A stretch of DNA of 64,000 bases from Bythopirellula sp. GTDB lineage: Bacteria; Planctomycetota; Planctomycetia; Pirellulales; Lacipirellulaceae. A program made the position numbers and the translations under genes. The notes under the pieces were generated by a model. The model searched no databases, had not been told where the DNA came from, and saw nothing but the letters and a program-made list of their open reading frames with translations. The DNA is taken from NCBI GenBank assembly GCA_965216565.1, contig OZ244170.1, positions 2,176,001 to 2,240,000 on the forward strand, given 5' to 3'. Below, piece after piece: positions 8,900 through 37,075 of this stretch; the first letter of the stretch is position 1; each line of letters starts with the position of its first letter.

Positions 8900-10777
8900 T
8901 TACGCCGCACTCTTCACCCGCAAAGCCGGAGCCTCAGTAGGCGTGCTCGCAGGGGTCGGCTCGTAGACAGGTATGATTTGCTCCAACGCTGCCCGAACCG
9001 TATCGTTCGGCTCGTCGACGATTTCGCTCAGGCGGCTGATGTCGTTTAGCACTTCCAACAACCGCGGAGGCGCCCCGTTGGCCACCATGATTTTTGAGTG
9101 TCGCGTCGGCTGATGCAGTTCGCGATCGCTGTAGAGCTCTTCGAACAGCTTTTCGCCAGGGCGTAGGCCGCTAACTTCGACTTCGATGTCGTCACCAACG
9201 CGGAGGCCGGACAACCGGATCATATCTTGAGCAAGATCCATGATGCGGACCGGTTCTCCCATGTCGAGTACAAAGATCTCGCCACCCCGACCCATGGTAC
9301 CCGCCTGGATGACAAGTTGTGCCGCTTCAGGAATCAGCATGAAGTAGCGAATCATATCCGGGTGAGTCACGGTCACCGGACCGCCGCGGGCGATCTGTTC
9401 TCGGAATATGGGAACCACGCTGCCCGCCGAATCGAGAACATTCCCAAATCGGACCGTTACCAGCCGGCAAGAGGAAGTTGCCGCCTTAGCTTGGACATAC
9501 TGTTCGGCGAGTTTCTTGCACGAACCCATGACGCTCGACGGATTCACTGCCTTGTCCGTCGAAATCATAACTAGTCCCTCGACCTCGAACTGTTCAGCTA
9601 AGTCAACCAAACAGCGGGTCGAGAGCACAATATTCTTCACCGCCTCGCCGACGTGCGCTTCCATCAGCGGGACATGCTTGTAGGCGGCAGCGTGAAAAAC
9701 GATATTCGGTCGATGCTCCGCAAAAACTGCTTCCATCCGCCGTGCATCGGTCAAGTCGGCAAGTGCCACGTCGATGTTGATGTCCGGCGCAAGTTGACGT
9801 AGTTCGCGCTCCAGGAAAAACTGCCCCGTTTCACTGCGGTCGACAAGCACGACCTTCTCTGGGGCGAGCTGCAGAATCTGGCGGCATATTTCCGAACCAA
9901 TGCTTCCGGCACTACCCGTCACGAGCACCGTCCGATTGTTAATCCACTGGTGAATGCTCTCCATATCGAGGTCGACCGAAGGCCGTCGCAACAAGTCGGA
10001 GATAGCCACTGGTCGAGGATTAATTGCCACGCTGCCGGTGAGTATTTGTTCGTAGCTGGGGAGCACTTTCACATGAAAGCCGTTCTCCGCGGCGGACTGT
10101 ACAAGTTCTCGGACCGCTCGACCCGAAAGCACACCGGATGTGATGAGAACCTGTTCGACTCCATACTTGGCCACCAACTGCGGGATGTCCTCGTGCGTGC
10201 CTAAGACGGGAATTCCCGCTATGCGACGCCCCACAGCCGAGCTGTCTTCGTCGATGAAGCCTATAGCCCGATAATCGAGTTTGCTCCGCAACATCCCCCG
10301 CAACAGGGCTTCGCCGGCGTCATTTGCTCCAGCAATCAGTGCTACGGTTCCGCTTTGTTTGGAGAATAATCGCCAGTCGGTATCGTGGATCAGCCTCGGC
10401 AGAATCCGAACCGCCGCCAGTAGCGCGAGTGTCACTCCCCAATCAAGTAGAATGACGCTTCTTGGTATTACCGTGGACGAAAGTACCAGCGCGTCCAAAA
10501 GCGTAATCCCAACTGAGCAAATAGTGACCGTTCGAACCATCCGCACCATATCGCGGAATGTGACATAGCGAGAGAACTCAGCATGGAACCTGGCTTGCAA
10601 CAGGCCCACGACTTTGATCAGCAGGACCCAGAATATTGTGCCGCTTAACTGAGCAGTTGCCGACTCGTCGAGCGAACCATCAAACCGCAACAAAAATGCG
10701 CCCACATACGCCAAAGCGCACAACGGAACGACAACCGCCAGGCCGAGTGAAATTCGAAGATGATTCTGATTTTTCAT
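8900..10777 (-). CDS. Membrane-bound nucleoside-diphosphate-sugar 4,6-dehydratase (CapD/PglF/WbpM family)
   Basis: Four N-terminal TM helices, GSAGSIG, HAAAYKHVP, STDKAV, RFGNV, GLRPGEKL; start taken at ATG 10777. Confidence 0.9.
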   Translation of the reverse strand: MKNQNHLRISLGLAVVVPLCALAYVGAFLLRFDGSLDESATAQLSGTIFWVLLIKVVGLLQARFHAEFSRYVTFRDMVRMVRTVTICSVGITLLDALVLSSTVIPRSVILLDWGVTLALLAAVRILPRLIHDTDWRLFSKQSGTVALIAGANDAGEALLRGMLRSKLDYRAIGFIDEDSSAVGRRIAGIPVLGTHEDIPQLVAKYGVEQVLITSGVLSGRAVRELVQSAAENGFHVKVLPSYEQILTGSVAINPRPVAISDLLRRPSVDLDMESIHQWINNRTVLVTGSAGSIGSEICRQILQLAPEKVVLVDRSETGQFFLERELRQLAPDINIDVALADLTDARRMEAVFAEHRPNIVFHAAAYKHVPLMEAHVGEAVKNIVLSTRCLVDLAEQFEVEGLVMISTDKAVNPSSVMGSCKKLAEQYVQAKAATSSCRLVTVRFGNVLDSAGSVVPIFREQIARGGPVTVTHPDMIRYFMLIPEAAQLVIQAGTMGRGGEIFVLDMGEPVRIMDLAQDMIRLSGLRVGDDIEVEVSGLRPGEKLFEELYSDRELHQPTRHSKIMVANGAPPRLLEVLNDISRLSEIVDEPNDTVRAALEQIIPVYEPTPASTPTEAPALRVKSAA

Positions 10778-10796
10778 ACTTAACTGTCTCTGTCTG

Positions 10797-13559
10797 TTAC
10801 AAAGACTTGGCTGGAGTCGGAACTTCGGCACGATAACTCAATCGTTGCCGGCCGATCTTCATCAACATTGTCTTGCTACTCGTATGATCGGGCCTGCGAG
10901 CGAGACACCAATTAAACTGTTCTTCGGCTGACTCCAATTGGCCGAGCCCCGCACACAACACGCCCAGGTAGTAGTGCGTGCCAAAATCTTGTGGTTCTGA
11001 GACAATTGCTTGTTGATAGCTATGAATGGCTGCCTGGGGTTTGTTGAGCGCTGTTTGAATTTGAGCAAGTAGTTTCCATAACTTTGCAATATTGATCGAG
11101 TCGTTTGCGCTAATCTTATTTTGAATCACGCTTGCCGTATGGGATTCGATTGCCATCCAGTCTTGCTCGGTCCCCCGCGCCGCGTAGTGCTGCCAGACGG
11201 GCTGCAACACAGAGGGCCCCGGTTGCAGCAAGCCCAACAATCCCTCTGCAGGAATATGCGGAGCCATCGAGTTGACTACCTGCAATTGGTGTCGGGTTGG
11301 TGATTTGAAAAGCACTTTCCACACCTGGAACGCTTGTTCCGGTCGGCGGGCTGCCAGTAGTTGTGTGCCGACTTCGAAAAGCACATCGCTATCGCAAGGC
11401 CCCACTGCCAGCGCCTGTTGCCACAGGGCCTCGACCTCTCGGTTCCCTCGTCCTTCCAAGAAAGCTAAGCCTGCCAGAAAAGTGTAAGCTTCACCTTGAA
11501 ACGGACAGAGTCTAACAGCGTGCTTGGAATGATAAAGCGCCCGGTAGAGCAGCTTGCTACGTTCCCCAAAGGCACGTTGCAACCACTCTTGCAGTTCCTT
11601 GGAGCTAGAAAACTTCGAACCAATGGCTGAGTCGCGGATTTGCGTCACAGTCATTTGGTTCATCGCGTCGGCTCCCTGCAGGTTGAATTCCTTCAACAGG
11701 TTGGCCGCTAGTTTCAAGTGCGCTCGAGCATCATCCGGGTTCACGGCGATGATCTTCAGAAGCACCTCGGTTCGGTAGTGGATGAGTTGCTCGTCGGCCT
11801 GTTGCCTTTGGAAATCGGCTTGCACTACGGCCAGCGAAAGGTCGCCGTTGACGGCCCTCTCGGCGTTGTTGGCAAGATGGTAACGGTCCCAGTGCATAGC
11901 TGCCTTGGCTTGCGGCAGCAAAGTGTATGTCGACCAGCCTCCCGCTAGTAGCACAACTGCACAAGCCGCCATCCAGGCAGGACGCATCAAGACAACCTGA
12001 GTGCGCTTCTCGCTAGCCACCGGTACGATCAATTGAGCAAGTCGCAACGCACAAGCTGCCAAAATAATTGTCACTGCCATACACGCGGGAACAAACCACA
12101 CAAAATCGAACGGTGCATGCGCAGCACTCCCCGCCAACGAAGCTACGATGGCTCCTGCGTATATCTGTTGCTCTCTCGTTTGGGATCGGACAAGTGCTAA
12201 GCAACACCAAAAGCCTACGCACACCAAGCCGGCTGCTAACAGGACGACTCCTGGCAAGCCGTTTTCAGTAGCAATCTGAAGTGGGCTGCTTTCCGAGTGC
12301 ATGAATAATCGATTGAGCGGTGCCTCTAAATAGACAGGATAAATGTACCGATGAGTCCCTGCTCCCGTGCCAGCTTGCCAACCAGATTCGATCGCTTCGG
12401 CATTGGCAGCCCAAATCGTTCGTCGGCCACCGCGTGCATCAAGCGAATCCACGGAACCATCGGTAAAATCGTCGAGTCGACTCGCAATTTGGTCGTAGCC
12501 ATAGAAGGAGACGACTCCAACCATGACGATCGCTCCTGCCGCGACCAGTAGTGCCAGATCTGCCGCCTTCACTAAGCGAAATTTCAAGTAAGCGAGACCT
12601 AGCACGAAAAGACTTGCTCCGAGTGCGAGTGCTCCACCTCGGGATAGCGAACATAGAACCGCGGCAATTGCGACGATCACAGCAATGCCCAGGCATACGG
12701 CGAGCGGATCGATCGAGGGCTGATTCGCTTGTGCCGACCAGGACGATCTTGGCTTTTGCTCTTTTCTATTGCCCGAGCCCAGCCGACTCATGAACAAGGC
12801 AACCAGTGGGGCCGTGCCGAGCACTACAAAATGGGCATAGTGATTCCGGCAAGTAAAACTCCCCTTCACCTCTTCCGAAGTATTGGTATAGGGAAATTCA
12901 TAGAACCAGAAGAACAGTCCATTGGAGGTGAAATACTGAACGATTCCAAACAACGCGCCAATGGCTGCAGAGATGGCGATGTAATTGATAATACGTTTGA
13001 CATCCTGCACCGTCTGCAATCTCTGAGTAGCCGTAACAAACAGTAAGCCGTAAGCAACCAGTGTGGCGAGTGCCAGGCGGGTATCTTCCGGAGAGATCGA
13101 AATAGTACCCCAAGTTCCCAAGGAGTAGTGATTGAGCGGCACTTCGGCAGCACCGGTCGCCCAGAGAGGCAACAATTCGCTGAGCCGAGGTGCCAATGTG
13201 CCTAGCCATTCCGCGGGCAAACTGACAATCTGCAGCAAAACCGTACCAACGGCCAGCAGCATCAGCCAAATCGACATACTGCGGGTCCATTTGCCGCGTG
13301 TGACAAAAGACTGTCGAATAAACCAAGCAGACGAAACCATGCCGCAGAGGGCGACCAAGGCAAAACGGCCCATCGGGTGACGGCCACCGAACAACAGGGG
13401 CGTGATAAAGATGATGGCCGCCAGTCCGAGATCGACGATCTGCAAACAGATGTTCGGCAGCGCATTCTCCTCGCCAGCAGTTTGACTACGTGACCAGGAT
13501 CGATGACTAGTTTGTGATTGCCGACTCTGCATGGCTGGGGTCATTTCATAATTGAACAA
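10797..13559 (-). CDS. O-antigen ligase (Wzy_C)-family membrane protein with C-terminal TPR repeats
   Basis: Multiple TM helices, GSFTCRNH, SLSRGG, GTGAGT...H, helical TPR-like C-terminal half; exact start uncertain. Confidence 0.8.
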   Translation of the reverse strand: MFNYEMTPAMQSRQSQTSHRSWSRSQTAGEENALPNICLQIVDLGLAAIIFITPLLFGGRHPMGRFALVALCGMVSSAWFIRQSFVTRGKWTRSMSIWLMLLAVGTVLLQIVSLPAEWLGTLAPRLSELLPLWATGAAEVPLNHYSLGTWGTISISPEDTRLALATLVAYGLLFVTATQRLQTVQDVKRIINYIAISAAIGALFGIVQYFTSNGLFFWFYEFPYTNTSEEVKGSFTCRNHYAHFVVLGTAPLVALFMSRLGSGNRKEQKPRSSWSAQANQPSIDPLAVCLGIAVIVAIAAVLCSLSRGGALALGASLFVLGLAYLKFRLVKAADLALLVAAGAIVMVGVVSFYGYDQIASRLDDFTDGSVDSLDARGGRRTIWAANAEAIESGWQAGTGAGTHRYIYPVYLEAPLNRLFMHSESSPLQIATENGLPGVVLLAAGLVCVGFWCCLALVRSQTREQQIYAGAIVASLAGSAAHAPFDFVWFVPACMAVTIILAACALRLAQLIVPVASEKRTQVVLMRPAWMAACAVVLLAGGWSTYTLLPQAKAAMHWDRYHLANNAERAVNGDLSLAVVQADFQRQQADEQLIHYRTEVLLKIIAVNPDDARAHLKLAANLLKEFNLQGADAMNQMTVTQIRDSAIGSKFSSSKELQEWLQRAFGERSKLLYRALYHSKHAVRLCPFQGEAYTFLAGLAFLEGRGNREVEALWQQALAVGPCDSDVLFEVGTQLLAARRPEQAFQVWKVLFKSPTRHQLQVVNSMAPHIPAEGLLGLLQPGPSVLQPVWQHYAARGTEQDWMAIESHTASVIQNKISANDSINIAKLWKLLAQIQTALNKPQAAIHSYQQAIVSEPQDFGTHYYLGVLCAGLGQLESAEEQFNWCLARRPDHTSSKTMLMKIGRQRLSYRAEVPTPAKSL

Positions 13560-13604: not shown

Positions 13605-15983
13605 CTAAGCAGCTCGTCGGGGACGAATGCTGTGTGTTGATTGTGGGTGGCTTATTTCTGGTAAGTGCTCAGCTTGTGATTGATCCGTGGCAGTCAATTC
13701 ACTGAGCGAAGCTGGTAAGTCTGGCGTGGGGGGAACTGGTTGTTGGGCTTCCGATTGGTCGTGTCCGTAGCCATCGGTGTAACCGTAGCCATAGCCGTAT
13801 CCGTAGCCGTAACCATACCCGCCCCGATCTTCGGCAACGCCATTGGCAACAACCCCAAAGACGTGGCAACCGGTTTCGTGGAAGCTCTCTACGGCCCGAA
13901 TCACCGATCGCCGGTGATTCTTTTCTGGACGAACCACAAGCACTGCTCCGTCGACCAATTGGCCCACGATTTGGGCATCGCTCACGGCGAGCACTGGTGG
14001 GCAGTCGACCAATACGCGATCGTATCGGGAATCCGCCCAAGCCAATAATTCCACAAACGCCTTGCCGCTGAGCAGCTCGGCAGGATTCGGTCGTCGCAGA
14101 CCTACAGGCAAAACATCCAGTCCGTTGACTTCAGTATTGTGGATGAGCGATTGAGCCAATTCTTCAGGCGATTGCTCGGAGGCCAGCAGATCGGCAACCC
14201 CCTGTTGTCCCTTCAATCCCAGCAGGGTCGAGAATCCAGGCTTACGCAAGTCGGCGTCGATTACCAAGGTGCGATGGCCAGCCTGCGCGAATGCCACCGC
14301 CAGGTTTGCCGATACGGTTGTTTTTCCGTCTCCTGGTTCAGAGCTAGAGACGAGTATCCGATCGCAAACTTCACCGCCCAACGAAAGCGCGGTTCGCAAT
14401 GTACGGAATGCCTCCGATTCCACAGAATTCGGCAACGCATGCGTGTAGACGCTGGCCAAACCCTCTCCTTGCAGCGGATCAAGTTTTCTAACGATTGAGA
14501 GAATCGGCACATTCAACTGTGCGGAAAGCTCTTCCGGCGAGGTGAAGCGATCGTCGAGGCGGTCCTGGACATAAACCAACAAGCAACCGATTATCAAACC
14601 ACCCATAATCGAACCAACCCCCACGTTCCGTAGCCGGGGAGAAACGGGGCGATTCTCCGGCAACGGTTCGCGTGTGACTGTCGCTTTGATCGGGGCATGA
14701 ATCTGTGACATATCGATACTACTTAAGTTCTCGTTCACAGTTTCGTACTCGGCTTCAGTGCGAGAGACATCGCGTTCCTTCATGTGCAATTGCACGATTC
14801 CATCGCTCTGCTTGATAGCTTCGTTTCGAGACTGTTCGTAGGACATGCTCAGCTGCTGCTCGACTTGGCGGGAATGGTCCAGGGACTGCTGGAGCAGATC
14901 CAACACCAGATCGTCCGGAAGTGCTTTGCGCAGCTTGCCGTCGGCGGTGGCAGATCCACCTTGCGAGGCAATAAACTGCTGCTGCATCTGAATTTGCTTT
15001 CTAAGTTCCATCATCCTGGGATGATTCGCGCCCAGCACTTGCGACAGACCTTGAAATTCTTCCTGCGCGGCGAGCAATTTCTTCTTCTGTTCGCCAACCA
15101 CTCGCAAGTCTTCGGGACTCATTCCCAGCGAAGCCATCAATAGCTGCTGCCCCAGTGCAGACTCAAGCCCCATCAGGTGCTGCGAGACGTTACCACCGCG
15201 CAATTTGGCATGCTGCATCGAGGCCAGAGTCGCCTCGAGAATCAGTCTCTTCTCTTGTGCTTCGGAAAGTGCTTCGTTTAGCTTTAAGGCACGCTGGATG
15301 ATCGGTTCGACGACTTGGTCTTCCGAGGAAACAGCCAGATGGCCGACTTCTTCTCGATGCCGTTGCAGTTCGGACTGCTGCTCATCGAGTTTCGCCTTAA
15401 TCCGATCTCTCTCATTGGAGAGCAGCGTGCGAAACTCGCCAACGGTTCCTTTATGATTTTCTGCAACGAAGTCTAAGTACGCCCGAATGATGGCGTTCAC
15501 AACAGCAGCGGCGGCCTGAGGGCTTCGCGATCGGTAGCTAACATCGATGATATTCGTTTTGCGTTTGATCGAGGCGGAGAGATTTTTTTGGATTTTCGTC
15601 ACCCATTTCTTGGGTTCCACTCCTTGCAGGTCGATGCGAAACTGTGGCTCGAGTTTCCGGATTGCATCTCTTACGACAACCTGGCTCACCACGAGCTCCC
15701 GGTGCGTCGCCATCGTGTTGCCAGTATTCTCTTGACTACCAATCACCGAGAGCTGATCTTTGTTCTGATCAACAATGTTGATACTTGCCACCGACTGATA
15801 GTAGCGCGGTGCCAGATAGTAGTAGACGGCTCCTGCCAAGACAAACAAATACACGCTGCTCAGCACGACGTGTTTGCGATGGCGTAGAACGCGAATAAAC
15901 CGAAGCACGGCCGGCAACATATCGCCGGTTGCTGGGGCATCAGATTCGATTATCAGGTTTTGATCGGTGGGATTTGTTGTCAC
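13605..15983 (-). CDS. wzc: Polysaccharide co-polymerase / tyrosine autokinase
   Basis: Two TM segments flanking coiled coils, EAFRTLRT, Walker A GDGKTT, IDADLR, DCPP, C-terminal (GY)n tyrosine cluster. Confidence 0.92.
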   Translation of the reverse strand: MTTNPTDQNLIIESDAPATGDMLPAVLRFIRVLRHRKHVVLSSVYLFVLAGAVYYYLAPRYYQSVASINIVDQNKDQLSVIGSQENTGNTMATHRELVVSQVVVRDAIRKLEPQFRIDLQGVEPKKWVTKIQKNLSASIKRKTNIIDVSYRSRSPQAAAAVVNAIIRAYLDFVAENHKGTVGEFRTLLSNERDRIKAKLDEQQSELQRHREEVGHLAVSSEDQVVEPIIQRALKLNEALSEAQEKRLILEATLASMQHAKLRGGNVSQHLMGLESALGQQLLMASLGMSPEDLRVVGEQKKKLLAAQEEFQGLSQVLGANHPRMMELRKQIQMQQQFIASQGGSATADGKLRKALPDDLVLDLLQQSLDHSRQVEQQLSMSYEQSRNEAIKQSDGIVQLHMKERDVSRTEAEYETVNENLSSIDMSQIHAPIKATVTREPLPENRPVSPRLRNVGVGSIMGGLIIGCLLVYVQDRLDDRFTSPEELSAQLNVPILSIVRKLDPLQGEGLASVYTHALPNSVESEAFRTLRTALSLGGEVCDRILVSSSEPGDGKTTVSANLAVAFAQAGHRTLVIDADLRKPGFSTLLGLKGQQGVADLLASEQSPEELAQSLIHNTEVNGLDVLPVGLRRPNPAELLSGKAFVELLAWADSRYDRVLVDCPPVLAVSDAQIVGQLVDGAVLVVRPEKNHRRSVIRAVESFHETGCHVFGVVANGVAEDRGGYGYGYGYGYGYGYTDGYGHDQSEAQQPVPPTPDLPASLSELTATDQSQAEHLPEISHPQSTHSIRPRRAA

Positions 15984-17577: not shown

Positions 17578-18912
17578 TCAAGCCTTAACGATTCTCGCCC
17601 GTCCCGCCGCGACATCGTTCATGGCGTTTCTGGTATCGAGCACCAGCCGTGCATGTTCGGCGATAAACGCATAGTCGTAGGCTCGATGGGCGGTCGCAAT
17701 CAGCACACAATCCTGGTCGGCCAGGTATTCGGCTGTCAATTCCTGACTTTCCATAGCCGGCAAGTCGTGGGCACGCATTTCCGGAAGTGCAGGCACATGG
17801 GGATCGTTATAAGTCACCTCGGCACCCTGCGCTAGCAAACCCTCGAGCAGCACAAACGAGGGACTTTCGCGAGGATCGTCGACGTCACTTTTATAAGCGA
17901 TACCCAATAGTGCAATCTTGCTGCCGCGAACTGGTTTGCCTTCCTGGTTCAGGGCATCGCTTAGTCGCCGCAGTACAAAATTAGGCATCGACGAGTTGAT
18001 CTCGCCGGCCAATTCAATGAACCGGGCCGACATGCCGTGCTTGCGAGCAACCCAGCTAAGATAAAAAGGATCGATGGGTATGCAGTGCCCGCCTAGGCCA
18101 GGACCTGGGTAAAAAGCCGAGAAACCAAACGGCTTGGTCTTCGCAGCTTCGATCACTTCCCACACATCGATATCCATCCGAGTGCAAAGCAGTTTGAGTT
18201 CGTTAACCAGAGCGATGTTCACCGCCCGATAGGTGTTCTCCAATATCTTGCACGCTTCGGCGACTTCACAGGAAGAAACAGGAACCACCTCGGCCACTGC
18301 TTTGCCGTAAAGGGCGACGGCCAATTCTTGGCTCTCTTGATCGATGCCGCCCACGACCTTAGGAATCTTCGCTGCGGAGAAGTCCTCGTTTCCCGGGTCC
18401 TCGCGCTCAGGGCTATAGGCCAGAAAAAAGTCTTTGCCCACTTCAAGCCCCGATGTGGCCAGCTCGGCAAGCACTACGTCTCGTGTTGTCCCCGGGTAAG
18501 TTGTGCTTTCCAAGACTAGCAGTTGACCGGGCCGAAGTATTTTGGCGATTTCGTGAAACGTCGAGGTAACATAGCTCAGATCGGGATCGCGGGACTCCGT
18601 CAGCGGAGTCGGCACGCAGACAAGAATTGCGTCGGCGTCTGCCAGGCGATTGATATCGGCGGTAGCCTCAAACGCATTCTTTTCGTGCCACTGCTGTAGT
18701 TTTTCCGAGGGGATGTGCCCAATGTAGCTCTCGCCCTGGTTCAGCTTGTCGATTTTCTGTTGATCGACATCGTAGCCAATGGCACGAATCCCAGCTCGTA
18801 CAAAGGCATCGACCAAGGGCAGTCCGACGTAGCCTAAACCAACGACTCCCACAACCACTTGGTTGTTCTGGATGCGGGTGCGAAGCGTTTCGAAGCTTGA
18901 TGCGTTGGGCAT
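17578..18912 (-). CDS. wbpA: UDP-N-acetylglucosamine 6-dehydrogenase (WbpA-like)
   Basis: GLGYVGLP, CVPTP, ESTTYPGTT, SPEREDPGN, GGHCIPIDP; start taken at ATG 18912. Confidence 0.88.
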   Translation of the reverse strand: MPNASSFETLRTRIQNNQVVVGVVGLGYVGLPLVDAFVRAGIRAIGYDVDQQKIDKLNQGESYIGHIPSEKLQQWHEKNAFEATADINRLADADAILVCVPTPLTESRDPDLSYVTSTFHEIAKILRPGQLLVLESTTYPGTTRDVVLAELATSGLEVGKDFFLAYSPEREDPGNEDFSAAKIPKVVGGIDQESQELAVALYGKAVAEVVPVSSCEVAEACKILENTYRAVNIALVNELKLLCTRMDIDVWEVIEAAKTKPFGFSAFYPGPGLGGHCIPIDPFYLSWVARKHGMSARFIELAGEINSSMPNFVLRRLSDALNQEGKPVRGSKIALLGIAYKSDVDDPRESPSFVLLEGLLAQGAEVTYNDPHVPALPEMRAHDLPAMESQELTAEYLADQDCVLIATAHRAYDYAFIAEHARLVLDTRNAMNDVAAGRARIVKA

Positions 18913-19049
18913 AAACGTAAACCAGAGCCAAGGTTTCGGGACGACCGATCTTGACAAGTCTATCTATCTTCAGCGACGCTGTCGACCTTGCCGCCTCGTC
19001 GAAATATGGCCTCGCGCGGCAGAATCAATTCTTCAACTTGCGAGCGAAC

Positions 19050-19985
19050 ATGGGAACTTACTTGGTTACTGGCGGAGCGGGTTTCATTGGCTCCCACATT
19101 GCCTCGGCACTGGTTGAGCGAGGCGATACTGTCCGCGTATTGGATAACCTCAGCACTGGCACCGAAGCAAATCTTGCTCATCTGGGTGACAAAGTCGAAG
19201 TCGTGAAGGGCGACGTCCAAAACGCCAAGATTGCCGAGCAAGCCGTGGATGGCGTGGATGTGGTGTATCACCAGGCCGCACTGGCATCGGTTCCGCGTAG
19301 TGTGGCAAAGCCCATGGACACGAACGATGCCTGTGTGACCGGTACTGTCACAATGCTCGATGCAGCTCGCCGGGCAAAAGTTCGACGATTCGTCTACGCC
19401 GGTTCGAGCAGTGCCTATGGCGATCAGCCGTTTTCCTCGAAGCGTGAAAGTGACGTTCCGGCACCACTTTCTCCCTACGCCGCGGCCAAATTGGCAGGCG
19501 AATATTATTGTCGGGCATTTGCGGCAACCTATGGGCTGGAGACGGTCGCGATACGCTACTTCAATGTGTTCGGTCCCAGGCAAGATCCCAATAGCGAATA
19601 CTCCGCAGTCATTCCACTTTTCGTTACCGCCATGCTAGCGGGCAAACAGCCGACCGTATTTGGTGACGGTTACCAGTCGCGCGACTTTACCTACATCGAC
19701 AATGTCGTCGCGGGCAACCTGGCCGCCGCTGATGCTCCCCATGCCACAGGCCAAGTTTTCAACGTAGCCTGCGGGCATCAATTCACGTTGCTCGATTTGA
19801 TCGCTTCTATCAATCGAGTCCTGGGAACTGAAATCGAGCCGATTTTCGCCGAAGCACGGACCGGCGACGTTCGCGAGAGCTTGGCAGACATTACCGCAGC
19901 GCGGGAAGTCCTTGGCTATGAGCCAGTGATCGACTTCGACGAAGGTCTGCGTCGTTCGATTGAGTACTATCGCTCGCTATCATGA
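19050..19985 (+). CDS. NAD-dependent UDP-HexNAc(A) 4-epimerase (WbpP-like extended SDR)
   Basis: TGGAGFIG, SVPRS, YAAAK, RYFNVFGPRQDP, RDFTY; start taken at ATG 19050. Confidence 0.9.
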   Translation: MGTYLVTGGAGFIGSHIASALVERGDTVRVLDNLSTGTEANLAHLGDKVEVVKGDVQNAKIAEQAVDGVDVVYHQAALASVPRSVAKPMDTNDACVTGTVTMLDAARRAKVRRFVYAGSSSAYGDQPFSSKRESDVPAPLSPYAAAKLAGEYYCRAFAATYGLETVAIRYFNVFGPRQDPNSEYSAVIPLFVTAMLAGKQPTVFGDGYQSRDFTYIDNVVAGNLAAADAPHATGQVFNVACGHQFTLLDLIASINRVLGTEIEPIFAEARTGDVRESLADITAAREVLGYEPVIDFDEGLRRSIEYYRSLS

Positions 19986-20132: not shown

Positions 20133-21125
20133 ATGAATTTCGGCTTAATCGGCGCCGCTGGCTATATTGCACCTAAGCATTTCAAAGCCATTCACGATAC
20201 CGGCAATACGCTGGTCGCAGCGGTCGACCCCCACGATTGCGTGGGCCGGCTCGATAGTTTCTTCCCTCAGGCACGATTCTTTACCGAGATCGAACGCTTT
20301 GATCGCTATCTCGAAAAGTGCCGACGCGGCCCGGAGGAAGAGCGCGTCAATTACGTCAGCGTCTGCTCCCCCAATTATTTACATGATGCCCATGTCCGCT
20401 TGGCCCTGCGGGTCAAAGCTCATGCCATTTGCGAGAAGCCGTTGGTGATTTCGCCTTGGAATCTCGACGCGCTCGAAGAGCTCGAAGCAGAACATGGCAG
20501 CCGAATCTATACCGTGCTCCAATTGCGACTGCTGCCCTCTCTGTTAGAGCTACGTAAAAAGATGCTGGAACAGACGGCCCGTGAAAAAGCGGATATTTGT
20601 CTTACTTACATCACTCGACGTGGCCGCTGGTACGACACTTCTTGGAAAGGCAATCACGAGAAATCAGGCGGGGTGGCCCTCAATATTGGCATCCACTTTT
20701 TCGACCTGTTGCACTGGCTCTTCGGAGATGCCGAACAAAGTACGACGCACTTAAACACTCCGCGGAAAATGGCCGGCGTCTTGGAACTCGACCGTGCCCG
20801 GGTGCGGTGGTTCCTTTCGACCGATGCGGATGACTTGCCCGACCATGTCACAGAGCAGGGCGGTTATGCTTATCGGTCGATGACCTACGACGGCCAAGAA
20901 ATCGATTTCTCTTGTGGATTTACCGACTTGCACACGGCCGTGTACGAAAACATTTTTGCGGGCCAGGGAACTGGCATCTCAGATGCTCGACCTGCTATCG
21001 AGCTAGCGCACACAATTAATCGCAGCGAGACAGCGTCAAGCTTGCGTGACGCCCATCCGTTTGTTCACGATGTTTCCAGCGTCCGCTGGCCCCGCATCGA
21101 ACGAACTGCTAGCAAAGCTGCGTAA
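20133..21125 (+). CDS. wbpB: UDP-GlcNAcA 3-dehydrogenase (WbpB/WlbA, Gfo/Idh/MocA family)
   Basis: GAAGYIAPKH, SPNYLH, CEKPL, SGGVALNIGIHFFD, FTDLH. Confidence 0.88.
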   Translation: MNFGLIGAAGYIAPKHFKAIHDTGNTLVAAVDPHDCVGRLDSFFPQARFFTEIERFDRYLEKCRRGPEEERVNYVSVCSPNYLHDAHVRLALRVKAHAICEKPLVISPWNLDALEELEAEHGSRIYTVLQLRLLPSLLELRKKMLEQTAREKADICLTYITRRGRWYDTSWKGNHEKSGGVALNIGIHFFDLLHWLFGDAEQSTTHLNTPRKMAGVLELDRARVRWFLSTDADDLPDHVTEQGGYAYRSMTYDGQEIDFSCGFTDLHTAVYENIFAGQGTGISDARPAIELAHTINRSETASSLRDAHPFVHDVSSVRWPRIERTASKAA

Positions 21126-21839: not shown

Positions 21840-23036
21840 ATGATCCCGCTTTGCGATCTGCAATCGCAGTACCAAACTATTTGCCACGATGTCAGCACAG
21901 CCATTGAGCAAGTGTGCGCGAGTGGTGCTTACGTGCTGGGTCCGAATGTTAAACAATTTGAGTCCGAAGTCGCAGACTATCTGACAAGCGACCACACGAT
22001 TGGCGTTGGCAGCGGCACCGATGCCCTGCATCTCGTCTTGCGAGCCTTGGGAATTGGCCCCGGCGACGAAGTTATTACCACACCGTTCACGTTTGTTGCC
22101 ACGACCGAAGCGATTGGACTCGTTGGTGCATCGCCCAAGTTCGTCGATATCTCGCCCAACACATTCAACATCGATCCCCAGCACATCGAACAAGCAATCA
22201 CGAAGCGCACCAAGGCAATTCTACCGGTTCACCTCTACGGCCAGCCCTGCGAGATGGACGCGATTATGGACATCGCCAACCGGCACAACTTACCTGTGAT
22301 CGAAGACTGTGCACAGGCGATCGGGGCGGAGTATCGGGGACAGAAGGTTGGCACGTTTGGCGTAGCAGGTTGCTTCAGCTTTTTCCCTAGCAAAAATCTG
22401 GGCTGCTTCGGCGACGGGGGTCTTGTTGCCACCAACGACCCGGAACTCGGCAAACGCGTGGAGATGCTTCGCCGCCACGGTGGACGCGTGAAATACCACC
22501 ACTCGGAATTGGGACTTAATAGTCGACTGGATGAAATCCAAGCTGCCGTATTGCGGGTCAAACTCCCACTGCTCGATCGCTGGAACAGTCAACGCCGTGC
22601 GGTTGCCGCAGCTTACAACAAGAAATTGGCGGGGCTCAGCGAAGTCACTGTGCCCGAAGAATTACATGCCGAAGGTCTCCAACCAGCAATTGCAGAACAC
22701 GAGAACACATTGCTTTCGGCTGTTTATCATCAGTACACGATCGAGGTAGACGACCGAGACGCGATTGCCAGCGCTATGAAATTGCAGGATGTACAGACTT
22801 GCGTGTACTATCCCATACCGTTGCACTTGCAAGAGGTTCACAAAGATCTTGGCCATGCACGAGGCTCATTTCCAAATGCAGAACGAGCCGCGAAGCGCTG
22901 CCTAAGCTTGCCCATGTTTCCGGAACTTACCGACGAACAAATTGCCCACGTTGTCGACGCACTCCAGCAGGAAGCATCGACTCATCATGTCGAAAAGCCG
23001 GGCAAAGATTCCCACACTCATAGTTTAGTCGCCTAA
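21840..23036 (+). CDS. wbpE: DegT/DnrJ/EryC1/StrS aminotransferase (WbpE-like)
   Basis: [37 protein letters not shown]. Confidence 0.88.
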
Positions 23037-23364: not shown

Positions 23365-23374
23365 ACGATCGGCG

Positions 23375-25630: not shown

Positions 25631-27013
25631 ATGATCACCCTCCTCACAACCGTAACTTGCCTTGGCACATTGCTCGCCCTCGCTGTGCAACTGTACCGTT
25701 GCGTCTTGAAGCGTTCTTGGCATGCGAAGCTGAGTCTGCCTGAGTTGACGGCCTATATTGGCAAGGAATCGCATCGCGTAGGCGACGTGGTACAGGTATG
25801 CGTGCATTCCACACAGAAGGCGCGGGCCACATTACTTCGGTTGGGCAAGACCCTGGAAGAAGTTGAGCGGTCTCAGGAAATCGAACCCCACGAGCAATCG
25901 CCGGTGTACGACCGTTGGCAGGGGCTACGTTGGCAGCCGAATTTGGAGATTGAAACGACAGACCTGTTGCCTGGGGCTTATTGTCTCGTCTTTCGGACTG
26001 TGGATGATCCTGACGTTACTTACCGTGTGCCTTTACTGCTGCGATCGGCTAAGTCGCGAGCAGTTGCTGTTGTGGCCTCGACGAATACCTGGCAAGCGTA
26101 CAACGATTTCGCTGGGCTTTCGAACTATGCAGACCACGTTTCGCCCTGGCCGCTGAGTTGGGCGAAAAGACTGATGGCCCTGCTGAATATCCAATTTCAG
26201 ATTGGCGATCGCCATCACTTCCCCAGTGTGCCGCTGCCGACAAACCGACCGAATGACGCCATTGACCTCGATCTGCGAGAACTGCAGTCGTGCCCCATCG
26301 AGAACTTCTCACACCTCTTGCGAGCTGAGTGGTCGCTCTTGAGATTCCTGGAAGAAAAAGACATCGAGTACAACCTTTACAGCGACCGCGACTTGGCACA
26401 GGCCCCAGAAATCACAGACGCCGATATTCTGATTTTCAATACACACAGCGAGTATTGGTCGGAAGAGATGATCGGGCGGCTCCAGGCCTACTTGTTTTCT
26501 GGTGGCCAGGCCCTATTCGTTTCAGGGAACAATCAATACCGCAAAGTCGATCTGCTGGAAGACTCCCTCGTGGTTTATGACTTCAAGACCGACGCCAAGG
26601 AAACATCGGAGCTACTTGGATCTGCCTACGACGCGCGTGGTTATCAAACTTACGGTGGATTCCGGATAGCGGCTGCCGAACATTGGTTGTTCGACAGCCT
26701 AGACGTCGCGACGGGGGATCTGTTCGCTCACGCCGTTGGCCACACCGGCCGACCACTGGGGGCCAGTGGCTATGAAACAGACAAACTCACAGCACACAGC
26801 GGGGCCGTCACGGTATTGGCCATTGGTGACAATCGAGAAGGACCTGCTTACATGGTGTACAAGCAAGTCGGTGACGGTGCGGTGCTAAATACGGGATCCG
26901 TGGCCAGCGCCCCTTGGGTGGAGAAAGATCCTGTCCTAGGCGGGCTTGTGACTCGGTTTATCAACAACGCCGTATCTCAAGCGGAACTGAAACAGGAGCG
27001 GGATGCCGCGTGA
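25631..27013 (+). CDS. N,N-dimethylformamidase beta-subunit family protein with N-terminal membrane anchor
   Basis: TWQAYN, HSEYWS.EM, SGN, GASGYETD motifs. Confidence 0.75.
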   Translation: MITLLTTVTCLGTLLALAVQLYRCVLKRSWHAKLSLPELTAYIGKESHRVGDVVQVCVHSTQKARATLLRLGKTLEEVERSQEIEPHEQSPVYDRWQGLRWQPNLEIETTDLLPGAYCLVFRTVDDPDVTYRVPLLLRSAKSRAVAVVASTNTWQAYNDFAGLSNYADHVSPWPLSWAKRLMALLNIQFQIGDRHHFPSVPLPTNRPNDAIDLDLRELQSCPIENFSHLLRAEWSLLRFLEEKDIEYNLYSDRDLAQAPEITDADILIFNTHSEYWSEEMIGRLQAYLFSGGQALFVSGNNQYRKVDLLEDSLVVYDFKTDAKETSELLGSAYDARGYQTYGGFRIAAAEHWLFDSLDVATGDLFAHAVGHTGRPLGASGYETDKLTAHSGAVTVLAIGDNREGPAYMVYKQVGDGAVLNTGSVASAPWVEKDPVLGGLVTRFINNAVSQAELKQERDAA

Positions 27014-28561: not shown

Positions 28562-29902
28562 GTGCAACTAGCTCCATTCACCAAAAACAAGTTTTGGCAA
28601 AAGGTGGGGATTGTGTCTCTCGGCACAATCGTGTCGCACGCGCTCATCCTGGTGGCTTCGCCAGTTATTGCACTGCTCTATAGCCCGGCCCAATTTGGCA
28701 CGTACATGCTCTACGGGGCGTTCTTGTCTTTCTTAGCAATTCTCGTGACGTTTCGTTATGAAGTTGCCATCTCTATCTCCAAAGCTGCGCAGGAAGCGCG
28801 ATCGCTTGTGGTGCTTGTGCTACTCTCAGCCTGTACCCTGAGTGCGGTGTTGGCGGTGGCAATTTCGTTGCTGGACCTCTCCGCAATTTTGGCGATGTTC
28901 GATGCCATCGGTCTCAAGAGCGTTCTGTACTTCCTCGTCGCGGGATGTCTCCTCGAGGGGTACTTGCGACCCATGCGAGCGTGGAACATCCGCAGCGGCA
29001 ACATGCCCGCGCTAGCCTATGCGAAGATGACGCAGAGTTTCACGCTAGTCTCGACTCAAGTTGCTTGCAGTATGTTGGGGCACATCGGACTGTTAGTGGG
29101 CGACCTTATTAGCCGATTTGCCGCCGGCTCGATGCACTTGCTGATGGCCAAACGACGCCATGAATGGCCTTTGGAATCACAATCGCTCGATTCCATCACT
29201 AGCGTTGCCAAACGGTATCGCCGCTTTCCCATGTACTCCACATGGGCGACCGTTTGCAATCAGTTCGTCGACTCGGGCCCGTTGCTTCTGTTGGGTGCCC
29301 TGTTCAATCCGGCAATTGCCGGCATGTTCGCGATGGCCCATCGCGCATTGATGGGCCCGCTGCTTGTTTTTAGTACATCAATCACTCAGGTCTATGTCGC
29401 CGAGGCATCGCAAGCGATTCGTGAAGAACCTGAGCGGCTTAAGAAACTCTTCTGGCAAACGTCTGCTAGGCTAGCAGGATTGGGAGTCGTTCCTATCTTG
29501 TGCCTCGCCGGTATGGGGCCGACCCTCTTCGCTTGGTTTTTCGATGCGGGTTGGCAGCAGTCGGGGCAGTTTATGGTGCTTTTGGCCCCCGCGGCTTTGG
29601 GCCAGTTCCTGGTGGGCCCCGTCTACCAAACCCTGGACTTGCTGCAAAAGCAAAAGTGGACGCTGGCACTCAATGGTATCGGACTGGGCGGGGTGACGCT
29701 CGTCTTTTACAGTGCTAGCCACCTGCAATGGTCAGCCGCTAGCACGGTTGGCATCTACAGCGCCTGGGTTTTCGGCTACAACCTCTGCCTATATCTGTGT
29801 GCCGCCTTTGCGGTTCATCGGCACAGCTCCCAACTAAGCCCCGTGAACACAAGTTGCAGTGCAGTCGCTGAAAACAACCCAGGCACTCCCGCAGCAGCCT
29901 AA
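28562..29902 (+). CDS. wzx: Oligosaccharide flippase
   Basis: LYSPAQFG, RYE.AI, RYRRFP, about 12 TM helices. Confidence 0.85.
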   Translation: MQLAPFTKNKFWQKVGIVSLGTIVSHALILVASPVIALLYSPAQFGTYMLYGAFLSFLAILVTFRYEVAISISKAAQEARSLVVLVLLSACTLSAVLAVAISLLDLSAILAMFDAIGLKSVLYFLVAGCLLEGYLRPMRAWNIRSGNMPALAYAKMTQSFTLVSTQVACSMLGHIGLLVGDLISRFAAGSMHLLMAKRRHEWPLESQSLDSITSVAKRYRRFPMYSTWATVCNQFVDSGPLLLLGALFNPAIAGMFAMAHRALMGPLLVFSTSITQVYVAEASQAIREEPERLKKLFWQTSARLAGLGVVPILCLAGMGPTLFAWFFDAGWQQSGQFMVLLAPAALGQFLVGPVYQTLDLLQKQKWTLALNGIGLGGVTLVFYSASHLQWSAASTVGIYSAWVFGYNLCLYLCAAFAVHRHSSQLSPVNTSCSAVAENNPGTPAAA

Positions 29903-32606: not shown

Positions 32607-32663
32607 ACAACCATTACATTTCCAATGCCGCTTAACATCAATCAAGGAAGATTGAAGATTAGC

Positions 32664-33566
32664 ATGACTACCAACATTATTTCCGATCCGTATTCGAGTT
32701 CGTCTCTGTTCAAGACCGTAGCCCGAGGTGTGCTCACCGTGTTGAGCCACATCTTGCCCAAGCGTATGTATTACGCGATCTATCAGCCATTATTTCAAGG
32801 CTACCAATGGTTTCTGCGAAACCGTTACAAAGCTGGTATCTCCTCCGCTCGGCGACAGGGCAACCACGCCTTGGTGCAGCGCTGCGAACGTGTGCTTTCA
32901 GTGATGCCTCACTCCCTGATTGGGTCACAGGGGCTGGAACATACACACGACTTGGCTCTCGATTTGGTCGAGAATCGCGTCGCAGGCGCATTCGTCGAGT
33001 GCGGAGTCGCCCAAGGTGGTTGCGCAGCATTGATTGCAATGGTCGCGGACTCCGATTCTGCGAACCGCCATTGCTGGTTCTTCGATTCCTTCGAGGGCCT
33101 GCCCGATCCCACGAGTGACGACTTCGAGGAAGGTCGTACCGGGCGTCACATTCGACCCCTGCCCAAAGGCTCCTGTCTCGGCACTCTAGAACAAGTCTCA
33201 GAGCTGCTGTTCGAAACATTCGGCTTCTCTCGCGAGCGAATCACCTTGGTGAAGGGTTGGTTCCAGGACACAGTCGAAAACCATGCACCCCAAATGGGAT
33301 CGATTGCTTTGTTGCGAATCGATGGCGACTGGTACGACTCGACCATGTGTTGTCTCGAAGCTCTTTACGACCGCGTCAGCCCCGGTGGCCATGTAATCAT
33401 TGACGACTATTTCAGTTGCTACGGTGCGAAAAAGGCAACGGACGAATTCCTGCAGCGACGCGGAGGCGAAGTTCGGCTGGTTTCGGATGGAAGAGGTGGT
33501 TGCTCTTTCCAAAAGCCCGCCTCCCATGCCACACAGCAGACTGAACCGTTGCTTGCCGCCGCGTAA
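32664..33566 (+). CDS. TylF/MycF/NovP-family O-methyltransferase
   Basis: GAFVECGV.QGG, FDSFEGLP, KGWFQDT, LRIDGDWYDST, GG..IIDDY. Confidence 0.9.
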   Translation: MTTNIISDPYSSSSLFKTVARGVLTVLSHILPKRMYYAIYQPLFQGYQWFLRNRYKAGISSARRQGNHALVQRCERVLSVMPHSLIGSQGLEHTHDLALDLVENRVAGAFVECGVAQGGCAALIAMVADSDSANRHCWFFDSFEGLPDPTSDDFEEGRTGRHIRPLPKGSCLGTLEQVSELLFETFGFSRERITLVKGWFQDTVENHAPQMGSIALLRIDGDWYDSTMCCLEALYDRVSPGGHVIIDDYFSCYGAKKATDEFLQRRGGEVRLVSDGRGGCSFQKPASHATQQTEPLLAAA

Positions 33567-35270: not shown

Positions 35271-35291
35271 GAACTACCACTTCCAAGAATC

Positions 35292-36116
35292 ATGACAAAA
35301 TCCACCCGCAACACCCAAGAGCTAGCCCAGCAAATTCGCCTGCACGTGCTGCAGATGACGAGCACGGGAGGCAGTTCGCACATTGGCTCATGTCTCTCGA
35401 TCGCCGACCTACTCGCTGTCCTGTATGGCCAAGTGCTCAACGTAGATTCTGAGAACCCCGCTTGGGACGATCGTGATCGTTTCATTCTTAGCAAGGGGCA
35501 CGCCGGCGCCGCCGTTTATGCGACTCTCGCGGAGTCTGGATTCTTCCCCGTCGAAAAACTAAAGACACATTACCAGGACGGTTCCGATTTGAGTGGCCAC
35601 GTCTCGCACAAAGGTATTCCCGGTGTGGAACTTTCCACCGGCTCGCTCGGTCACGGGCTCTCGGTGGGAGTTGGCATGGCCTATGCCGCCAAGCTCAAAC
35701 GTCGCTCGCACCGCGTGTTCGTCTTGATGAGCGATGGCGAATGCGACGAAGGCTCGAACTGGGAAGCCATGATGTTCGCCGCCCACCATGGACTCGATAA
35801 TGTGGTCGCTGTGATCGACTACAACAAACTGCAAAGCCTCGACACTGTAGAGAACACCCTGCGGCTTGAACCCTTTGCCAGCAAACTGGAGAGCTTTGGT
35901 TGGGCTGTTGTCGAATCCAATGGCCACGATCACAACCAACTCTCTGAGGCATTCTCCGCTTTGCCGGCTAAACCTGGCAAACCAACTTGCGTCATCGCCC
36001 ATACCACCAAGGGCAAAGGCGTTTCGTTTATGGAAGACAGCGTCCTCTGGCATTACCGGACTGCCCGCGGGGAAGAGTACTCAGCCGCCTTGGCAGAATT
36101 GGAGCAAACGGTATGA
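35292..36116 (+). CDS. Transketolase, N-terminal (TPP-binding) subunit
   Basis: RDRFILSKGH, STGSLGHGL, SDGECDEGSNWEA...DYN, KGKG. Confidence 0.92.
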   Translation: MTKSTRNTQELAQQIRLHVLQMTSTGGSSHIGSCLSIADLLAVLYGQVLNVDSENPAWDDRDRFILSKGHAGAAVYATLAESGFFPVEKLKTHYQDGSDLSGHVSHKGIPGVELSTGSLGHGLSVGVGMAYAAKLKRRSHRVFVLMSDGECDEGSNWEAMMFAAHHGLDNVVAVIDYNKLQSLDTVENTLRLEPFASKLESFGWAVVESNGHDHNQLSEAFSALPAKPGKPTCVIAHTTKGKGVSFMEDSVLWHYRTARGEEYSAALAELEQTV

Positions 36117-37075
36117 GAGACGAATTCATCAAGCGCCTAGGCGAAATGGCCGCCGTCGATCCCCGCGTGATGCTGATTACCGGCGACCTGGGATTTGGCG
36201 TGTTCAACGATTACCGCCGGGATTATCCCGAACAGTTCATCAACGTCGGCATAGCCGAGCAGAACATGATCGGTCTCGCCACAGGCTTGGCTCTCGAAGG
36301 GCACATCGTCTACACCTACTCGATTGCCAACTTCTCATTCATGCGTTGCCTGGAGCAAATCCGCAACGACGCCGCCTACCATGATCTAAACGTCAATGTC
36401 GTTTGCATTGGCGGTGGGTTTAGTTACGGCCAATTGGGAATTTCTCACCACGCGACCGAAGACATCTCGATCATGCGATCGTTGCCCGAGGTGACTGTGG
36501 TTTCGCCGACCGATAAGTGGGAGGCCGCCGAGGCGACCGAGGCGCTTGCCAACAGGGCAGGGGTGGGCTATCTCCGGCTCGATAAATCAGCGGCCGACGT
36601 CTCGCACTCGGACGACGAACAATTCGAACTAGGCAAAATCCGCACCATTACCGAGGGCCAAGATGTCACACTGCTGGCCACCGGCGGAATCCTGGGCGAA
36701 GTCACACAAGCGGCCACCGCGTTGGAATCCCAAGGTATCTCTTGCCGTGTTCTTAGCGTGAATACGATCAAACCCCTCGATGCGAATACCATTCTTCGTG
36801 CCGCGAAAGAAACCGACGGCATCGTCACTATCGAAGAGCATACCGTGCATGGCGGGTTGGGCAGCGCCGTGGGCGAAGTGCTTCTCGATCACGGAGCCGC
36901 TCCCAAACGCTTCCTGCGGCTCGGATTAAGCGGCGGTTTCTCTTCGGTCGTCGGCAGCCAACAATACTTGCGTAAGCAGTATCATCTAGACGCGATTTCG
37001 ATTGCGGAACGGGTGACCAATCTCTTCAACCAGAGTGAGAAAAAATCTCGACTCCGTCTGCTGAATGCAGCTTGA
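36113..37075 (+). CDS. Transketolase, C-terminal subunit
   Basis: NVGIAEQNM, EQIRND, SHH..ED, EEH...GGLGS; ATGA overlap with the upstream subunit. Confidence 0.92.
   Translation: MRDEFIKRLGEMAAVDPRVMLITGDLGFGVFNDYRRDYPEQFINVGIAEQNMIGLATGLALEGHIVYTYSIANFSFMRCLEQIRNDAAYHDLNVNVVCIGGGFSYGQLGISHHATEDISIMRSLPEVTVVSPTDKWEAAEATEALANRAGVGYLRLDKSAADVSHSDDEQFELGKIRTITEGQDVTLLATGGILGEVTQAATALESQGISCRVLSVNTIKPLDANTILRAAKETDGIVTIEEHTVHGGLGSAVGEVLLDHGAAPKRFLRLGLSGGFSSVVGSQQYLRKQYHLDAISIAERVTNLFNQSEKKSRLRLLNAA

Follow-up and report, generated by a model that had tools for sequence, protein, structure and literature searches.

Terminal Ala-Ala on envelope-building proteins of a Bythopirellula genome, a candidate gene-encoded ssrA-like degron

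We analyzed a 64,000-nucleotide window of the genome of the planctomycete Bythopirellula sp. (assembly GCA_965216565.1; positions 2,176,001 to 2,240,000 of the single 5.21-Mb contig, OZ244170.1), which contains a Wzx/Wzy-type polysaccharide locus, recognized by Pfam, at window positions 8900 to 37075. We found that 11 of the 21 long open reading frames (ORFs) of this locus encode proteins that end in Ala-Ala (-AA), that the same ending recurs elsewhere in the genome on proteins that build the cell envelope and flagellum, and that it persists among orthologues within one class of the phylum. Judging from sequence, we consider the chances about even that terminal Ala-Ala acts as an ssrA-like degron on this envelope-building set.

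The enrichment of -AA in the locus is confirmed, and it is stronger than the first-pass annotation of this DNA had noted. That annotation had counted 11 such proteins in a total of 22; the 11 endings stand, while the long ORFs number 21. All of the endings that it quoted are present in the sequence, including the -VA termini of two further proteins (WbpD-like and WbpE-like) and the PTAA of a CsrA-REC fusion regulator, and no -AA ending occurs among the 20 genes called beyond 37.1 kb, as it had said. Genes were called genome-wide with our own crude codon-usage scorer, which yielded 3760 genes and a genome coverage of 85%; where an ORF ends is independent of the choice of start codon. No terminal dipeptide is commoner in these calls than -AA, which closes 95 of 3760 proteins (2.5%), compared with 1.2% expected if Ala occurred independently at the two final positions, with an overall Ala content of 9.2%. 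The clustering supposed by the first-pass annotation is borne out by a Fisher test of 11/21 in the locus against 95/3760 in the genome (p=4.3e-13), and in 5000 shuffles of gene order, the maximum was 7 -AA proteins per 21-gene window, against the 11 observed. The -AA background stayed at 2.5 to 2.8% when the minimum ORF length was set to 150, 200, or 300 amino acids. A nucleotide-level cause was rejected: the -AA tails of the locus draw on all four Ala codons and all three stop codons, so they share no nucleotide context and the signal lies at the protein level, as had been claimed.

The genes of the locus and the ends of their products are given below, followed by the two other genes to which we refer. 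Assignments are from Pfam, with NCBIfam support where stated, and positions are those of the window.

8900-10831, minus strand: CapD-like protein (Polysacc_synt_2) with four predicted N-terminal transmembrane (TM) helices and a cytoplasmic C-terminal domain; ends KSAA
10797-13559, minus strand: Wzy_C (O-antigen ligase/polymerase family) membrane protein with C-terminal TPR; untagged, ends AKSL
13605-15983, minus strand: Wzc-like chain-length protein and bacterial tyrosine kinase (BY-kinase), Wzz plus P-loop; YGYGY cluster, variable linker, then IRPRRAA
16049-17239, minus strand: Wza-like outer-membrane polysaccharide exporter; untagged, ends TSL
17578-18957, minus strand: nucleotide-sugar dehydrogenase (also NCBIfam); ends VKA, without Ala-Ala
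18951-19985, plus strand: NAD-dependent epimerase/dehydratase; untagged, ends SLS
20133-21125, plus strand: GFO/IDH/MocA oxidoreductase (WbpB-like); ends SKAA
21211-21825, plus strand: hexapeptide acetyltransferase (WbpD-like; also NCBIfam); ends SVA
21840-23036, plus strand: DegT-family aminotransferase (WbpE-like; also NCBIfam); ends LVA
23321-24517, plus strand: 398-residue protein with no family match; ends ERAA
24514-25554, plus strand: KAS III-like protein (FabH family); untagged, ends EGT
25631-27013, plus strand: DMFA2_C-like protein; RDAA ending on an additional tail of about 12 residues
27096-28544, plus strand: 482-residue multi-pass membrane protein with no family match, a possible polymerase; untagged, ends NRP
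28562-29902, plus strand: Wzx-type flippase (Polysacc_synt_3); ends PAAA
29859-31073, plus strand: GT4-like glycosyltransferase; ends PRAA
31254-32567, plus strand: GT4 glycosyltransferase; untagged here, ends RVG
32625-33566, plus strand: TylF-family O-methyltransferase; ends LAAA
33608-34234, plus strand: Bac_transf initiating sugar-phosphate transferase; ends RRAA
34231-35172, plus strand: aldo/keto reductase; ends LVAA
35229-36116, plus strand: transketolase N-terminal subunit; untagged, ends QTV
35987-37075, plus strand: transketolase C-terminal subunit, whose real start is probably 3' of 35987; ends LNAA
37197-40676, minus strand: S8 subtilase, a conserved flank of the variable locus; untagged
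3922-4686, plus strand: CsrA-REC fusion regulator, outside the conserved set; ends PTAA

The Wzx/Wzy set is complete in this locus, with Bac_transf, Polysacc_synt_3, Wzy_C, Wzz plus P-loop, and Poly_export plus SLBB all matched. The gene names of the first-pass annotation held up against Pfam apart from its "GNAT" label for the 398-residue protein, which could not be confirmed because that protein has no family match (no Pfam match even at E 0.05 and none in NCBIfam). No Pfam or NCBIfam family was matched by the 482-residue protein.

When the census was extended to function, envelope-glycan synthesis accounted for 33 of the 95 -AA proteins but for only 3 of 130 random proteins, the first 130 of 150 drawn from 20 evenly spaced genome regions (p=2e-11), with the class assigned by our own judgement from Pfam hits and, in part, from gene location. 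The -AA proteins outside the window are not scattered. In a second hotspot, at 4.025-4.044 Mb, 7 of 10 genes end in -AA, and these encode two GT2 enzymes, a Kdo/WaaP-kinase-GT2 fusion, a second such kinase, two unknowns of about 550 residues, and an MsbA-like ABC exporter; the GT61 enzyme of this hotspot ends in -VA. One GT4, one GT11, and one GT2 enzyme with -AA are grouped at 4.713-4.717 Mb. Among proteins of the lipopolysaccharide (LPS) pathway, -AA is found on LpxA (both copies), LpxD, LpxI, an LpxL-like acyltransferase, a WaaA-like transferase of 3-deoxy-D-manno-octulosonic acid (Kdo), KdsB, a KdsC-family phosphatase, heptosyltransferase II, and LptB. The NCBIfam curated cut-off is exceeded by LpxA (both copies), LpxD, KdsB, the KdsC family, heptosyltransferase II, and LptB, and WaaA, LpxL, LpxI, MurG, and MsbA fall below it. 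LpxC and LpxB end in -SA, and LpxK and two KdsA/DAHP-family proteins are untagged. The ending also occurs on MurG, FlhB, MotA, two more MotA/ExbB-family proteins, and several MscS channels, and in the flagellar cluster at 2,615,462-2,622,721, only MotA (TEQAA) and FlhB (TRLAA) carry it, both with cytoplasmic C-termini.

These data do not sustain the first-pass view of the tag as specific to the glycan cluster, since it is also present on lipid A, Kdo, and core enzymes, LptB, an MsbA-like protein, MurG, FlhB, and MotA/ExbB-like proteins. Nor does it mark glycan assembly lines as such: in four other regions sampled around glycosyltransferase genes, 0 of 56 genes end in -AA. Three of these regions are glycan loci with sulfotransferases, one of them complete (Wzz, phosphoglycosyltransferase, glycosyltransferase, Wzy_C, and Wzx at 4.06-4.08 Mb), and the fourth holds two GT1 genes and a glycoside phosphorylase. 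Thus, the tag is neither private to the window cluster nor general to glycan assembly lines. We also rejected the notion that all glycosyltransferases are tagged (5 of 19 GT2 and 1 of 13 GT1 hits, one of the latter unassignable to a called gene) and that all membrane proteins are (3.2% of proteins with at least two predicted TM helices versus 2.4% of the rest, p=0.27).

To follow the ending through evolution, we compared orthologues from 24 genomes of the same genus and from as many as 16 genomes in the order's other families. Terminal -AA was found in 28 of 29 LpxA orthologues (24/24 in the genus and 4/5 in other families), 26 of 29 for MurG (22/22 and 4/7), 24 of 29 for LptB (22/22 and 2/7), 23 of 29 for FlhB (20/23 and 3/6), and 23 of 28 for WaaA (14/16 and 9/12), the tails of the WaaA orthologues being otherwise dissimilar. 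The ExbB/MotA-like protein ends in -AA in 23 of 29 cases (17 -AA and 6 -VA of 23 in the genus; 6/6 -AA in other families). For Wzc, the total is 20 of 24 (16 -AA, 2 -AG, and 1 -VA of 19 in the genus; 4 -AA and 1 -SA of 5 in other families), and the linker before the tail is hypervariable, yet the ending IRPRRAA is kept; Wzc paralogues at about 27% identity end in -AA in 0 of 3 cases. As a control, the cytosolic enzyme Rpe, which has -AA by happenstance in this genome, has it in 1 of 29 orthologues overall. Because the tails diverge in sequence and length while Ala-Ala stays, the comparison indicates that the terminal dipeptide itself is under selection.

Other proteins of the locus behave similarly or are consistently untagged. 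Proteins of relatives whose best hit in the window is the CapD-like protein end in -AA in 15 of 19 cases in the genus (the other 4 in -VA or -SA) and in 3 of 3 from other families, the four WbpB-like orthologues end in RRVA, TKAA, SRAA, and SKVA, and orthologues of the transketolase C-terminal subunit end in RAAA and QLAA. The second GT4 enzyme, RVG here, has two same-genus homologues ending in GLAA and QLAA and one homologue from another family ending in HTIR. No -AA was found in 12 orthologues of the Wzy_C-TPR protein or in 8 of the flanking S8 peptidase. The first-pass annotation had also noted that the exported Wza lacks the tag, and this holds in the relatives (0 of 23). All 23 end in Phe, the usual terminus of outer-membrane proteins, and the window copy ends instead in ...RVTSL. 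In Wzc orthologues, a YGYGYGYGY tyrosine cluster stands ahead of the variable linker, as expected of a BY-kinase tail. The CsrA-REC regulator was rejected as a tagged protein: its PTAA ending is real, but it has no close orthologue, and only 1 of 18 homologues, none above 45% identity, ends in -AA.

We also compared the syntenic locus itself in 17 same-genus genomes (18 regions) and in 5 genomes of other families. Gene content varies, and -AA was found on 76 of 334 genes in the genus and on 20 of 106 in other families. Among genus-locus genes with no orthologue in the window, 34 of 209 end in -AA, which implies that the tag tracks the pathway rather than descent. Outside the phylum, the comparison of termini envisaged by the first-pass annotation gave 5 -AA genes of 222 in 22 polysaccharide loci of other phyla and 0 of 14 complete ends among DMFA2_C-like homologues, a negative control, since a search with that protein gave only distant homologues in other phyla, at up to 41% identity. 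KdsB homologues at 65 to 99% identity end in -AG (68/120) or -AA (45/120), 113 of 120 together, and cluster representatives at 41 to 68% identity have either ending in 5 of 150 cases. In another order of the same class, LpxA ends in -AA in 3 of 4 genomes and in -SA in the fourth (a sample of one family, with two genomes of one genus), and none of 36 genomes from the phylum's other classes has an LpxA with the -AA ending. From these LpxA, KdsB, DMFA2_C-like, and other-phyla counts, we assign the trait to the lineage, at roughly class level. In an acidobacterial metagenome-assembled genome labelled Candidatus Angelobacter, 3 of 11 ORFs of a polysaccharide locus end in -AA (STAA, KIAA, and VRAA), and other lineages may have comparable tagging.

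The residues ahead of Ala-Ala differ between the glycan set and other proteins. In the 33 glycan proteins, Lys and Arg together make up 52% of residues at position -3 and 39% at -4, against a background of 16%, and in the 62 other -AA proteins, they make up 13% and 24%, respectively. The remaining -3 residues of the glycan set are mostly Gln, Asp, or Ser, and the variants tolerated at the end itself are Val or Ser at -2 and Gly at -1. The ExbB/MotA-like orthologues of the genus end in KKAA or KKVA in 22 of 23 cases and in RKAA in the remaining one. LptB retains Ala-Ala behind acidic residues (EGAA and DDAA), so a basic patch is not required. In AlphaFold2 models, residues 720-792 of Wzc have a predicted local distance difference test (pLDDT) score below 50 and no secondary structure, and residues 255-269 of LpxA are also below 50, with residues 169-198 low as well, although low pLDDT is not proof of disorder. 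By a crude predictor, proteins with a signal-like N-terminus carry -AA less often (16/990, 1.6%) than the rest (79/2770, 2.9%; p=0.03), and those 16 are mostly multi-pass inner-membrane proteins. Topology was judged from domain order and a crude hydropathy scan.

The machinery that recognizes a free Ala-Ala terminus is encoded in this genome. The tag of its transfer-messenger RNA (tmRNA) is ANGNYALAA. Its ClpX scores 582.9 bits against TIGR00382, above the cut-off, and has the zinc-binding N-domain; residues Y153, V154, T199, V202, R228, and H230 are identical to those of E. coli, as are the GYVG, SITRDV, and RKH segments when compared with E. coli ClpX chain 8e91_A. PMC7652416 describes these same six residues of E. 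coli ClpX as contacting the Ala-Ala-COO- of ssrA and reports that mutating either alanine raises the Michaelis constant (KM). ClpX (2,541,984-2,543,264, minus strand) itself ends in ...PPQTKSA, a near-variant of the tail. Two FtsH genes are present, over the cut-off. The LapB Zn-ribbon Pfam family was not found in this genome, which is 94% complete, and its model is unspecific, also matching Gram-positive control genomes.

In the reading that we favor, terminal Ala-Ala would be a gene-encoded mimic of the ssrA tag, usually presented behind one or two basic residues on a flexible tail with a cytoplasmic C-terminus. Its readers would be the proteases that clear ssrA-tagged proteins, with ClpXP the most likely and the membrane protease FtsH possible. 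The tagged set would consist of inner-membrane or membrane-associated builders of the envelope and flagellum, namely the lipid A, Kdo, and core pathway, LptB, the MsbA-like exporter, the Wzx/Wzy locus of the window, MurG, FlhB, and MotA/ExbB-like proteins, and the tail would offer a single handle for their joint turnover or for their turnover when outside their complexes. We infer binding of the tail by a protease, the ensuing degradation and its timing, and the preference for ClpX over FtsH; a link to a swimmer/sessile or budding transition, as the first-pass annotation suggested, would be a further step of the same kind.

A hard-wired degron is the simplest reading because of the tmRNA tag, the ClpX residues, and three precedents: an E. 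coli screen, Caulobacter substrates, and LpxC. In an unbiased screen of C-terminal 5-mers in E. coli (PMC10862746), terminal Ala-Ala is present in 91% of the top 100 degrons, which are ClpXP dependent; LVA is also potent, and neutral or positive charge is enriched. Substitutions of the tail in our data stay small (VA, SA, and AG), and VA fits the activity of LVA in that screen. Similarity to the ssrA-like, or "C-motif-1," degrons of ClpX in E. coli extends to a free Ala-Ala on a probably accessible tail, the genome's own ALAA tmRNA tag, the retained ClpX residues, and the -VA variants, a likeness known from sequence, from which degradation is predicted. Unlike those degrons, the tail here is encoded in genes over a functional set rather than added by tmRNA, the residues upstream are basic or polar rather than Leu, and KdsB often ends in -AG. 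In Caulobacter, a dimorphic bacterium, the ClpXP substrates CtrA and NstA have a hard-wired terminal Ala-Ala and are stabilized by a change of AA to DD, in the account that PMC4470285 gives of them, but those are single, adaptor-gated regulators, whereas here some 40 biosynthetic and membrane proteins of another phylum are involved and no adaptor is known.

The third precedent concerns lipid A itself. WaaA, in addition to LpxC, is an FtsH substrate in E. coli. PMC11046580 describes LPS synthesis in E. coli as tuned through FtsH degradation of LpxC, with a flexible C-terminal degron of the motif LAXXXXXAVLA and the TPR adaptor LapB. The likeness would lie in a C-terminal degron on a lipid A enzyme in a cell with FtsH, of which this genome has two genes; the difference is that the E. 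coli motif is on one enzyme, whereas LpxC here ends in ...ADQQPIRASA, without a LAXXXXXAVLA-like FtsH degron, and most of the pathway ends in Ala-Ala. The "C-motif-2" degron of MuA (...RRKKAI) offers another comparison, with a basic run followed by a small or hydrophobic end that recalls RRAA, KKAA, and KKVA, but the MuA terminus is -AI and degrons of its class are presumed to engage an open ClpX channel (PMC12723719), whereas Ala-Ala is the invariant element here.

Several observations weigh against a degron. The residues upstream of Ala-Ala are mostly Lys, Arg, or Gln, or acidic in LptB, and do not match the preferences of E. coli, which according to PMC10862746 are for Leu at -3 and for Leu or an aromatic residue at positions before it; the same paper finds AA alone insufficient and 39% of AA tags weak. 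KdsB relatives end in -AG (68/120) more often than in -AA (45/120), and PMC10862746 reports Gly as depleted among working tags. EF-Ts, L20, and RpoD end in -AA in this genome, so a strong degron cannot consist of Ala-Ala alone. Essential and presumably long-lived enzymes are among the tagged proteins, and their degradation would need gating; there is no known adaptor here, and SspB was not found in the genome (94% complete). Finally, the related genomes share ancestry, and the orthologue counts are not independent trials.

The main alternative, possible but rather unlikely, is that the tail is a docking or sorting motif, approximately [KR][KR]-[AVS]-[AG]-COOH, through which a receptor other than a protease positions envelope builders at the membrane or growth site. 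It would account for the basic residues, which precede Ala-Ala in the conserved set and not elsewhere (52% versus 13% at -3), and for the KKAA/KKVA of the ExbB/MotA-like orthologues, and it suits a set made up of membrane or membrane-associated machinery with essential enzymes whose instability is not obviously wanted. Candidate readers are clamps for a free C-terminus, such as the cytoplasmic TPR domain on the Wzy_C protein of the locus, for which about 10 TM helices and a soluble C-terminal portion of 380 residues are predicted and which, though untagged, is kept in the locus of 12 relatives; TPR domains are able to bind C-terminal peptides. This receptor is a candidate only, however, its topology comes from a crude hydropathy count, and nothing connects it with the LPS proteins, MurG, or the flagellar proteins. 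That LptB keeps Ala-Ala behind acidic residues also speaks against docking, and the sole strictly conserved feature, Ala-Ala-COO-, is exactly the target of ClpX.

A broader version, which we consider improbable, is a class-wide address code, [KR][KR]-A-A-COOH, with a receptor that would gather the LPS pathway, the O-antigen-like polysaccharide, MurG, FlhB, and MotA at the growing bud. The tail would then not be, or not solely be, a degron, and it would represent a bacterial counterpart of eukaryotic dibasic sorting. Members of the class bud and are not known to have FtsZ, and the LpxA tag occurs in this class but in none of 36 genomes from other classes; the link to budding depends on the general biology of the class and, in effect, on a single evolutionary event. 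The eukaryotic KKXX-COOH retrieval signal, read by COPI, resembles the tail in being dibasic, at the extreme C-terminus of cytoplasmic membrane-protein tails, and read with its free carboxylate. It differs in that Arg is here as frequent as Lys, the last two residues are fixed, soluble enzymes are included, and no coat-like reader is known; the comparison is one of analogy only.

Terminal Ala-Ala might also need no dedicated reader, if it served termination efficiency, avoidance of stalling and tmRNA tagging, or as a cap against carboxypeptidases or other C-terminal degradation. C-terminal residues do influence termination and tmRNA tagging in E. coli, and the constraint is confined to the last two residues, which stay small. 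A general translational effect should not be limited to one functional set, however, nor should it miss the 56 genes of the four other regions or the Rpe control, and the absence of a common nucleotide context (all Ala codons and all stop codons) also argues against it, so that we give it very little credence. The last possibility, that the pattern has no function and arose from shared descent, composition, or gene-calling artefact, draws on the nonindependence of the relatives, the crude gene caller, and the commonness of Ala (9.2%), but it is close to refuted, with next to no probability left, by tails that diverge fully while Ala-Ala remains, by the tagged nonhomologous genes of relatives' loci (34/209), by flat controls (Rpe, 1/29; other-phyla loci, 5/222; KdsB at 41 to 68% identity, 4/150 with -AA; LpxA in other classes, 0/36), and by C-termini that the choice of start codon does not affect.

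To our knowledge, C-terminal Ala-Ala degrons have so far been described for individual regulators and in the tmRNA tag, and in full-text literature we found no report of Ala-Ala termini spread over a pathway, whether in planctomycetes or in other organisms. In this genome, these two residues are encoded across most of the lipid A, Kdo, core, and LPS-export pathway, a surface-polysaccharide locus, MurG, and flagellar parts, and the tag is kept throughout an order and extends into another order of its class. Should the tails be degrons, as we favor, they would define a post-translational regulon for block clearing or rebalancing of the envelope machinery and would extend the LpxC/FtsH paradigm to a whole pathway; if they are instead an address label, they would represent a new sorting principle in bacteria. 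Either way, they provide a sequence rule that predicts co-regulated proteins, including the unknowns of 398, 546, and 551 residues, and a way into the cell biology of planctomycetes, in which regulated proteolysis has hardly been studied.

Additional observations concern neighboring genes and loci. In the second hotspot, the two unknowns of about 550 residues are adjacent paralogues (4,028,717-4,032,033) that both end in RRAA; they lie in a putative LPS-core locus, and their sole match, nucleoside-diphosphate-kinase-like, is weak (E 1e-5 and 8e-3). Immediately next to this hotspot (4,020,283-4,024,171), an FHA protein, a JAB/MPN peptidase, and a YukD-like (ubiquitin-fold) protein are encoded. 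In the window, the S8 subtilase downstream of the polysaccharide locus (37197-40676, minus strand) is 1159 amino acids long and is conserved in that position in relatives, and a trypsin-like protease with a dockerin domain is encoded upstream of the locus (6330-7646, minus strand). The glycan loci with sulfotransferases, none of them tagged, are at 0.4-16.6 kb, 1.141-1.152 Mb, and 4.060-4.078 Mb; one adds a glucuronyl C5-epimerase, an ATP-grasp protein, and a deacetylase, a gene content that suggests sulfated polysaccharides. Fusions of CsrA to a receiver domain occur in at least three copies in this genome (the others at 3,354,324-3,355,061 and 3,367,927-3,368,667) and also in relatives, and they represent an unusual architecture for an RNA-binding response regulator.

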